64,000 nucleotides of DNA from Escherichia coli. Lineage in GTDB: Bacteria > Pseudomonadota > Gammaproteobacteria > Enterobacterales > Enterobacteriaceae. Under the pieces are notes generated by a model. That model searched no databases and was not told the origin of the DNA. It saw only the letters and a list, made by a program, of their open reading frames with translations. Location: assembly GCF_003334315.1 (NCBI RefSeq), contig NZ_QOWR01000025.1; one strand, written 5' to 3'. Both the position numbers and the translations under genes were made by a program. Below, piece after piece: positions 7,528 through 7,650 of the stretch. Each line of letters opens with the position of its first letter. The first letter of the stretch is position 1.

Positions 7528-7650
7528 TAAATGCCTTATCCGCCTTAAGGTATGAGGGGGGTTGTAGGCATGATAAGACGCGCCAGCGTCGCATCAGGCG
7601 TTGAGCACCATTGCCGGATGCGGCGTAAACGCCTTATCCGGCCTACAAAA
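7528..7650. repeat. REP/BIME cluster (two or more REP palindromes)
   Basis: Canonical REP sequences: gtaggcatgataagacgcgccagcgtcgcatcaggc (7564-7599) and gccggatgcggcgtaaacgccttatccggcctac (7613-7647), between yaeF and nlpE. Confidence 0.85.

Follow-up and report, generated by a model that had tools for sequence, protein, structure and literature searches.

Repetitive extragenic palindromic (REP) sequences have been known since 1984, belong to the textbook repeats and have been catalogued in Escherichia coli K-12 MG1655. Three clusters of them were analysed in a 64,000-nt stretch of E. coli DNA (contig NZ_QOWR01000025.1 of assembly GCF_003334315.1), referred to below as the window, and were compared with the closest described systems. 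The classes of bacterial interspersed mosaic element (BIME), namely BIME-1, BIME-2 and atypical BIME, were used as defined in PMC3333891, where BIME-2 has a short linker S between z2 and y. BIME-1 (RIP-RIB) consists of a Y unit, a long linker L with an IHF site and a Z1 unit. REP325/naRNA4 is a 12-unit Y/Z2 array between yjdM and yjdN. The REPIN/RAYT system comprises REP doublets and a domesticated Y1 transposase, TnpA-REP (the REP-associated tyrosine transposase, RAYT), and binding and cleavage by this enzyme depend on the GTAG foot and on the mismatch in the REP stem (PMC3333891). Rho-independent bidirectional terminators were included as the non-REP counterpart, having the same position as the REPs and similar hairpin stability.

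The window is the reverse complement of MG1655 at approximately 159.7-223.7 kb (MG1655 coordinate ≈ 223,701 minus window position). The clusters lie at the yaeF/nlpE junction (J1; spacer 7523-7721), the rof/tilS junction (J2; REP 10033-10069, spacer scanned 10024-10071) and the hemL/fhuB junction (J3; spacer 50100-50256). These gene names had been given in an earlier reading of the DNA letters (the sequence-only reading) and agree with the RefSeq annotation of homologous records. The same reading had called the junctions convergent or divergent; with yaeF, rof and hemL on the + strand and nlpE, tilS and fhuB on the - strand, all three are convergent and none is divergent. Its description of the DNA as E. 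coli-like was borne out, the flanking genes being 99.15-99.98% identical to MG1655 and each of the three spacers 100% identical, base for base. Judged by these values the source strain is a close relative of MG1655, and MG1655 itself is excluded by flanking-gene identity. No repeat_region features are listed at J1, J2 or J3 in the MG1655 RefSeq record, and REP names were therefore drawn from supplementary Table S16 of a 2026 preprint (Harris et al.), which is based on MG1655 annotation. J1 and J2 have the same sequences as REP16 (nlpE/yaeF) and REP15 (tilS/rof); J3 is presumably REP13, a name assigned by elimination.

By sequence, J1, J2 and J3 are genuine members of the E. coli REP/BIME family, already known and catalogued, with nothing new about them. 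They share with the described elements the Y/Z2 consensus, the GTAG/CTAC foot, the stem mismatch, the extragenic 3' location, the alternating orientation and the S- and L-type linkers. There is no difference in kind; J1 is chimeric, J2 footless, and the last unit of J3 decayed. REP palindromes had been placed by the sequence-only reading at 7528-7650, 10033-10065 and 50110-50245, and are present there far above chance. The tail motif CGYCTTATCMGGCCTAC, searched with ≤3 mismatches, gave 5 matches in 64 kb against 0.41 expected; none of 100 shuffles reached 5, and all five matches are confined to the three clusters. The head motif GCCKGATGCGRCG was found with 0 mismatches only at 7587-7599 (-), 7613-7625 (+) and 10033-10045 (+), and with 1 mismatch at 50113 and 50185. 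Chance palindromes were ruled out by the statistics of the two motifs. Inverted-repeat detection gave arms of 13-14 nt, 85-86% complementary, with an internal GATG/TTATC mismatch in every unit. The stem bulge formed by the non-complementary positions was also seen in RNA folds, and the spacers of J1, J2 and J3 folded better than shuffles on both strands.

Units were then aligned to the three REP reference sequences, Y and Z2 among them, printed in the methods of PMC11208160. Identity was 35/35 for the J1 Y (a count that includes the T directly before 7613), 35/37 for the J1 Z2, 32/35 for the J3 Y and 34/37 for the J3 Z2, J2 being intermediate; in an edit-distance scan these four J1 and J3 units were 1-2 edits from the Y/Z2 consensus. 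Only matches at ≤2 edits were used, as at ≤10 edits the short Z1 consensus is noise (118-153 matches in shuffles). The CTAC foot follows the stem, as CCTAC, at 7564-7568 (-), 7642-7646 (+), 50142-50146 (+) and 50162-50166 (-), and is missing from J2 and from the third J3 unit. The word canonical, which had been applied to all the REPs, fits the four J1 and J3 units just listed but neither J2, with its TTTC tail, nor the third J3 unit, a decayed Y. Neither non-alignment to the REP consensus and references nor single-copy status was found for the clusters: a J1 query hit a median of at least 35 places per E. coli genome and a J3 query a median of 9. All units are extragenic, between the stop codons of convergent genes, the exception being J2 next to the tilS allele of sequence type (ST) 131. 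A search of the window with the Rfam naRNA4 model (RF02564; gathering threshold 59.5 bits) at E ≤ 10 returned nothing beyond J1, J2 and J3.

The core of J1 consists of a Z2-type REP at 7564-7599 (-; tail ATCATGCCTAC; 1 edit from the Z2 consensus), a 13-nt S-type head-to-head linker at 7600-7612 (GTTGAGCACCATT) that aligns with the naRNA4/REP325 linker, and a Y-type REP at 7613-7646 (+), which is MG1655 REP16 (216,053-216,093). This Z2(-)-13 nt-Y(+) arrangement is that of BIME-2. The core matched the naRNA4 model over its full length (7567-7643, -; model positions 1-77; 92.8 bits, E = 1.9e-15), with the Z2 unit as the second naRNA4 hairpin, and in this corresponds to one 77-nt unit of REP325; J1 differs from that array in having one unit, not six, and in lying between convergent and not tandem genes. 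The Y unit is followed by a 36-nt L-type long linker at 7647-7682, conserved column by column with Y-L-Z1 alleles (L005 and L006), and by a 10-nt stump of a Z1-type REP, TTCTGGCCTG, at 7683-7692 (-), recognised by alignment with the same alleles. The extent of 7528-7650 given earlier holds the REP core; the linker and the stump run on to 7692. At the equivalent position in L005 and L006 there is an intact Z1, GTAGGCCTGATAAGCGCAGCGCATCAGGC, the rest of which was taken in the window by a 22-nt deletion. With respect to BIME-1, Y and the L linker have been kept, Z1 has been lost apart from its stump, and a Z2-S has been gained on the opposite flank of Y. The linker includes a putative IHF-like site, ATTCAAAATGTTG, at 7660-7672 (1 mismatch to WATCAANNNNTTR), a pattern that on its own occurs in the window at chance level (44 found, 47.8 expected). 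J1 is thus best classed as a BIME-1/BIME-2 chimera (Z2-S-Y-L plus Z1 stump), within the atypical BIME class of PMC3333891. A possible remnant of the 3' arm of a further Y-type REP, assigned with low confidence, lies at 7533-7544 (+): GCCTTATCCGCC resembles CGCCTTATCCGGCC, although identity to the Y reference is only 18/35, and the segment is confined to the K-12-type allele and missing from the Y-L-Z1 alleles.

J3 also has the arrangement of BIME-2, here Y(+)-15 nt-Z2(-)-7 nt-Y(+, decayed). Its first Y-type REP (50113-50146, +; 2 edits from the Y consensus; naRNA4 half-match of 37.7 bits) starts 13 nt past the hemL stop codon. A 15-nt tail-to-tail linker, GATTCGGGGCCGTTT (50147-50161), lies between two CTAC/GTAG feet, and a partial second copy of it is found at 50232-50246, after the third unit. 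The Z2-type REP (50162-50197, -; tail ATCGGGCCTAC; 2 edits from the Z2 consensus) is separated by a 7-nt head-to-head linker, ATCCGTT (50198-50204), from the head of a decayed or truncated third Y-type REP (50205-50231, +; 26/35 to the Y reference), which ends in GTCCAGG. An intact third Y, GTCGGATGCGGCGCGCCTTATCCGACCTAC, aligns to this decayed unit in strain 32F4 (L013). The naRNA4 scores of J3 were 46.6, 37.7 and 32.2 bits, all under the gathering threshold. J3 can be described as a BIME-2-like Y-Z2-Y array with a decayed last unit.

J2 is a single atypical Z2-like REP at 10033-10069 (+), listed as REP15 in MG1655 (213,630-213,673). It has a G·C outer stem, 13-nt arms with the typical internal mismatch, a 7-nt loop (TTTGATG) and a TTTC tail where CTAC is expected (it ends in GGCTTTC), and its predicted folding energies are -22 kcal/mol (z = -5.1) on one strand and -19 kcal/mol (z = -4.2) on the other. 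That J2 is an ordinary bidirectional terminator hairpin with a chance resemblance to REPs was judged extremely improbable. Megablast found its exact sequence only once per genome, the CTAC foot is absent, identity is 28/35 to Y and 29/37 to Z2, and the naRNA4 score of 27.9 bits is well under the gathering threshold, all of which would suit such a hairpin. Against this, both arms match the head motif with 0 mismatches and carry the GATG/TTATC stem mismatch, J2 has no U-tract and is a catalogued REP, and 41 copies of the same arm pair were found across Escherichia and its near relatives, most of them ending in a CTAC tail and some arranged in tandem BIME-like arrays of ~100 bp; J2 differs from the commonest of these by ~5 substitutions. 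In a pattern scan covering one genome per species, this arm type turned up only in Escherichia species (3-9 copies per genome) and a few Citrobacter/Pseudocitrobacter, with a loop that is mostly CTTGCCG; the scan returned no mainstream E. coli match, though 5,418 genomes carry J2, so that absence from it is not evidence of absence. Two records titled E. coli in the scan were without the rof/tilS copy.

All strain comparisons were made on 5,426 complete E. coli genomes, and J2 is present in 5,418 of them. An orthologous rof/tilS REP is found in E. albertii and in cryptic-clade Escherichia. Because the copy at this junction already has the TTTC tail in these relatives, J2 is best viewed as an old REP that has lost its foot and kept its arms. 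As the foot is needed for binding and cleavage by TnpA-REP (PMC3333891), J2 and the third J3 unit are predicted to be degenerate REPs that the transposase would not recognise, and loss of the foot may be linked to the fixation of J2. In E. coli O25b:H4 ST131 (L015 358-360; window 10057-10059) the tilS stop codon is mutated from TAA to CAA. The annotated coding sequence is 15 nt longer there and ends at a TAA within the 3' arm of J2, making a nominally strictly extragenic REP partly coding.

At J1 and J3 both the presence of REPs and the architecture of the cluster vary among strains, J2 being fixed. The K-12-type J1 allele was found in 2,044 of the 5,426 genomes and the classical Y-L-Z1 (BIME-1) allele in at least 1,551. 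A REP-free 29-nt spacer with the hairpin AAAGCCGGAG-AATG-CTCCGGCTTT (-21.3 kcal/mol) was found in 511, and the remaining 1,320, which include Y-L-Z1 variants such as L006, fell outside the exact-word queries. The J3 cluster was found in 1,702 genomes; in 3,686 the spacer is 34 nt long, lacks REPs and holds a GC-rich hairpin (-20.6 kcal/mol) between T/A runs. Inverted REP pairs and strain-to-strain variation in copy number are common to these clusters and to REPIN/RAYT, and at J1 and J3 it is this polymorphism that points to mobility. A nearby Y1 transposase was considered as an explanation and was not needed; the RAYT gene is outside the window, MG1655 rayT (yafM) presumably lying near 254 kb.

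Variation at J1 also includes an insertion. In strain ECCRA-119 (L008 1215-1216; L016 215-1494) a 1,279-bp IS621 lies within the tail of the Z1 REP of the yaeF/nlpE spacer, at ATCAGGC^CTAC, which is a published natural target of IS621 (PMC11208160). IS621 is an IS110-family element with a 'bridge RNA' recombinase, and its site in ECCRA-119 is homologous to the Z1 position, at approximately 7683-7692 of the window. The tail of the J3 Z2 unit, ATCGGGCCTAC at 50162-50172 (-), is the exact specificity of the target-binding loop of the wild-type IS621 bridge RNA (PMC11208160 supplement) and is a predicted landing pad for the element. J1 carries two variants of the target with 1 mismatch, ATCATGCCTAC and ATCCGGCCTAC.

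In function, the REPs of J1, J2 and J3 are most likely two-way 3'-end hairpins, a reading taken from the literature. Both converging mRNAs would run into the REP at their far 3' ends, and there it would fold into a stable imperfect hairpin, which would stop transcription partly, and partly in a Rho-dependent manner, without a U-tract, and would block 3'-to-5' exonucleases. It would in this way do the job of the plain bidirectional terminator hairpin of REP-free strains. Copies would have been seeded, amplified and rearranged by TnpA-REP, acting on the GTAG foot and the stem mismatch, and REP tails would serve in addition as insertion targets for IS621. According to Harris et al. (2026 preprint), REP325 is a partly Rho-dependent terminator and an mRNA stabiliser (block to decay), convergent gene pairs are the location of ~60% of REPs, and pairs of this kind that have a REP show higher expression. 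In that study nearly 40% of the REPs at convergent genes fall on mapped bidirectional terminators, including REP15 and REP16; Table S16 gives both as convergent bidirectional terminators, detected in log as well as stationary phase. The REP-free alleles of J1 and J3 have at the same place a strong plain hairpin that resembles a bidirectional terminator and is flanked by A/T runs. Rho-independent terminators differ from the REP alleles, which have no U-tract on either strand and belong to a dispersed repeat family; a pattern scan for hairpin-plus-U terminators in 7523-7721, 10024-10071 and 50100-50256 found none on either strand. Taken as one explanation, REP identity, the probable 3'-end hairpin role and spread by RAYT are held with high confidence.

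Several points weigh against this explanation. Its functional part draws on literature and analogy. No general difference in mRNA half-life was reported for REP-terminated genes, and context dependence was large (Harris et al., 2026 preprint). REPs are missing from J1 and J3 in many healthy lineages and are dispensable there. The REP-bearing and REP-free spacers (29 nt at J1, L007 524-552 and L009; 34 nt at J3, L010-L012 351-384) share almost no sequence; the exchange of hairpin and REP alleles is best described as wholesale spacer replacement with no clean insertion. In the minimum-energy fold of J1 (7523-7660, both strands) Z2 pairs with Y in one long imperfect hairpin, where the Rfam naRNA4 drawing has two separate REP hairpins, and the RNA in vivo may take either form.

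Other roles were weighed against the 3'-end hairpin. The full-length RF02564 match of J1, with 92.8 bits against a threshold of 59.5, could mean that J1 (possibly also J3) is the source of a discrete small RNA of the naRNA4 type, which would bind HU, bridge cruciform DNA and condense the nucleoid. Qian et al. (2015) proposed that naRNA4 and HU connect REP cruciforms, and ~80% of REPs were transcribed according to their study. However, the Rfam model is one Y-linker-Z2 unit of REP325, so that any BIME unit of this kind matches it, and J2 and J3 score under the gathering threshold. A pattern scan of the three spacers found no promoter-like site, leaving read-through as the only source of transcription. 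Deletion or overexpression of REP325 leaves nucleoid volume unchanged, and REP-REP contacts are neither enriched nor HU-dependent (2026 preprint, with an author in common with the original study). A discrete small RNA is accordingly rated very improbable. A better case, still an unlikely one, can be made for repeats that are selfish or neutral only and do nothing for the flanking genes, found at convergent junctions simply because insertions are tolerated there. The presence/absence polymorphism of J1 and J3, the decay of units in place (the Z1 stump and the third J3 Y) and the lack of a general half-life effect would all be expected of neutral repeats. J2, however, is fixed in E. coli, is kept in E. 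albertii and has both arms intact despite the loss of its foot, and bidirectional termination has been mapped to the positions of both J2 and the J1 Y REP. REP-free alleles always have another strong hairpin, pointing to a need for a hairpin of some kind at these junctions.

An additional role, compatible with the 3'-end hairpin, is that REPs no farther than 15 nt from a stop codon stall terminating ribosomes and lower translation. Liang, Rudd and Deutscher are said, at second hand, to have reported in 2015 that a REP within 15 nt of the stop codon leads to translational down-regulation. At J2 the REP is 9 nt away from the stop codon of rof and 6 nt away from that of tilS, and at J3 13 nt separate the first unit from the hemL stop, all distances inside this limit. 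The J1 REPs, at 41 and 75 nt from the flanking stop codons, are beyond it, and tilS of ST131 ends inside the REP without obvious harm. Such stalling was considered possible, on the doubtful side. Two further ideas, suggested by position and conservation, are together a long shot. REP and plain-hairpin alleles at yaeF/nlpE and hemL/fhuB might be non-equivalent and tune the envelope-stress sensor NlpE or the haem/iron genes differently between lineages. The ancient, immobilised rof/tilS REP might act as a feedback device: Rof inhibits Rho, and its own mRNA would be given its 3' end by a REP terminator that depends partly on Rho.

The REPs carry little weight as a discovery, being known and catalogued elements, and their practical value is in annotation. 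They flag the window as Escherichia, warn against calling small open reading frames (ORFs) through them, and point out junctions at which indels, IS621 insertion or REP copy number distinguish strains. The three-state polymorphism at two convergent junctions (REP cluster, different REP cluster or plain hairpin) offers a natural experiment for the model of a dual terminator and stabiliser. REPs had been said to explain spurious small ORFs at the three junctions. This is right only in part: at J1 and J3 five mechanically called ORFs of 47-108 aa cross REPs, and J2 is crossed by no ORF ≥20 aa. One of the five, a 62-aa ORF at 50004-50192 (-), was deposited as a protein (CAA27854.1/UniRef100_Q47216, from the 1986 fhuB entry, and a Shigella sonnei entry); the other four are absent from a collection of 15 billion proteins, and none of the five is called in current RefSeq annotation. 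Protein-coding small genes at the REPs were rejected, there being no conserved ORF and a single historic deposit.

The list of three sites was incomplete, as REP14, at the convergent erpA/yadS junction (46710-46736; MG1655 176,961-176,994), had been missed. It is a hairpin, ATGTGCCGGATA-GTT-TATCCGGCACAT, with a perfect 12-bp stem (-19.5 kcal/mol, z = -7.4), and is catalogued as a bidirectional terminator. It is atypical, having in common with true REPs only the outer GCCGGAT/ATCCGGC, and was undetected by the Y/Z consensus and naRNA4 scans.

The remaining observations concern the flanking genes and other parts of the window. Annotation gives yaeF as a frameshifted pseudogene in strains 2011C-4251 (L005) and ECCRA-119 (L008), both with the Y-L-Z1 allele. 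In strain WS4437A-1 (L004 723-947) the 3' end of nlpE is tandemly duplicated, leaving a partial nlpE pseudogene beside the intact gene; this is unrelated to the REPs. Differences between the window and MG1655 are unevenly distributed (2 in 8 kb at rnhB-tilS, 49 in 10.7 kb on the tilS-rrsH side and 51 in 6 kb at fhuC-clcA), yet the REP spacers are identical, which suggests a recombination mosaic in a K-12-related strain. A BoxC/intrastrand-triplex repeat pair, of a family distinct from REP, lies in the hrpB/mrcB spacer at 59061-59095 (+) and 59112-59145 (-). The two copies are TMECO no. 2 and no. 1 of Holder et al. (2015; MG1655 164,547-164,631) and gave weak matches to miRNA hairpins in Rfam; about 1,300 of the 5,426 genomes had no match to the pair. 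Other Rfam matches were CssrA at 32907-33016 (-) in the rpsB-tsf spacer, t44 at 33855-33941 (-) in the rpsB leader, the HtrA/degP 5' untranslated region thermometer at 42812-42857 (-) and, below threshold (145 against 167 bits), Ysr197 at 53-300 (-) in the gmhB-rrsH spacer.

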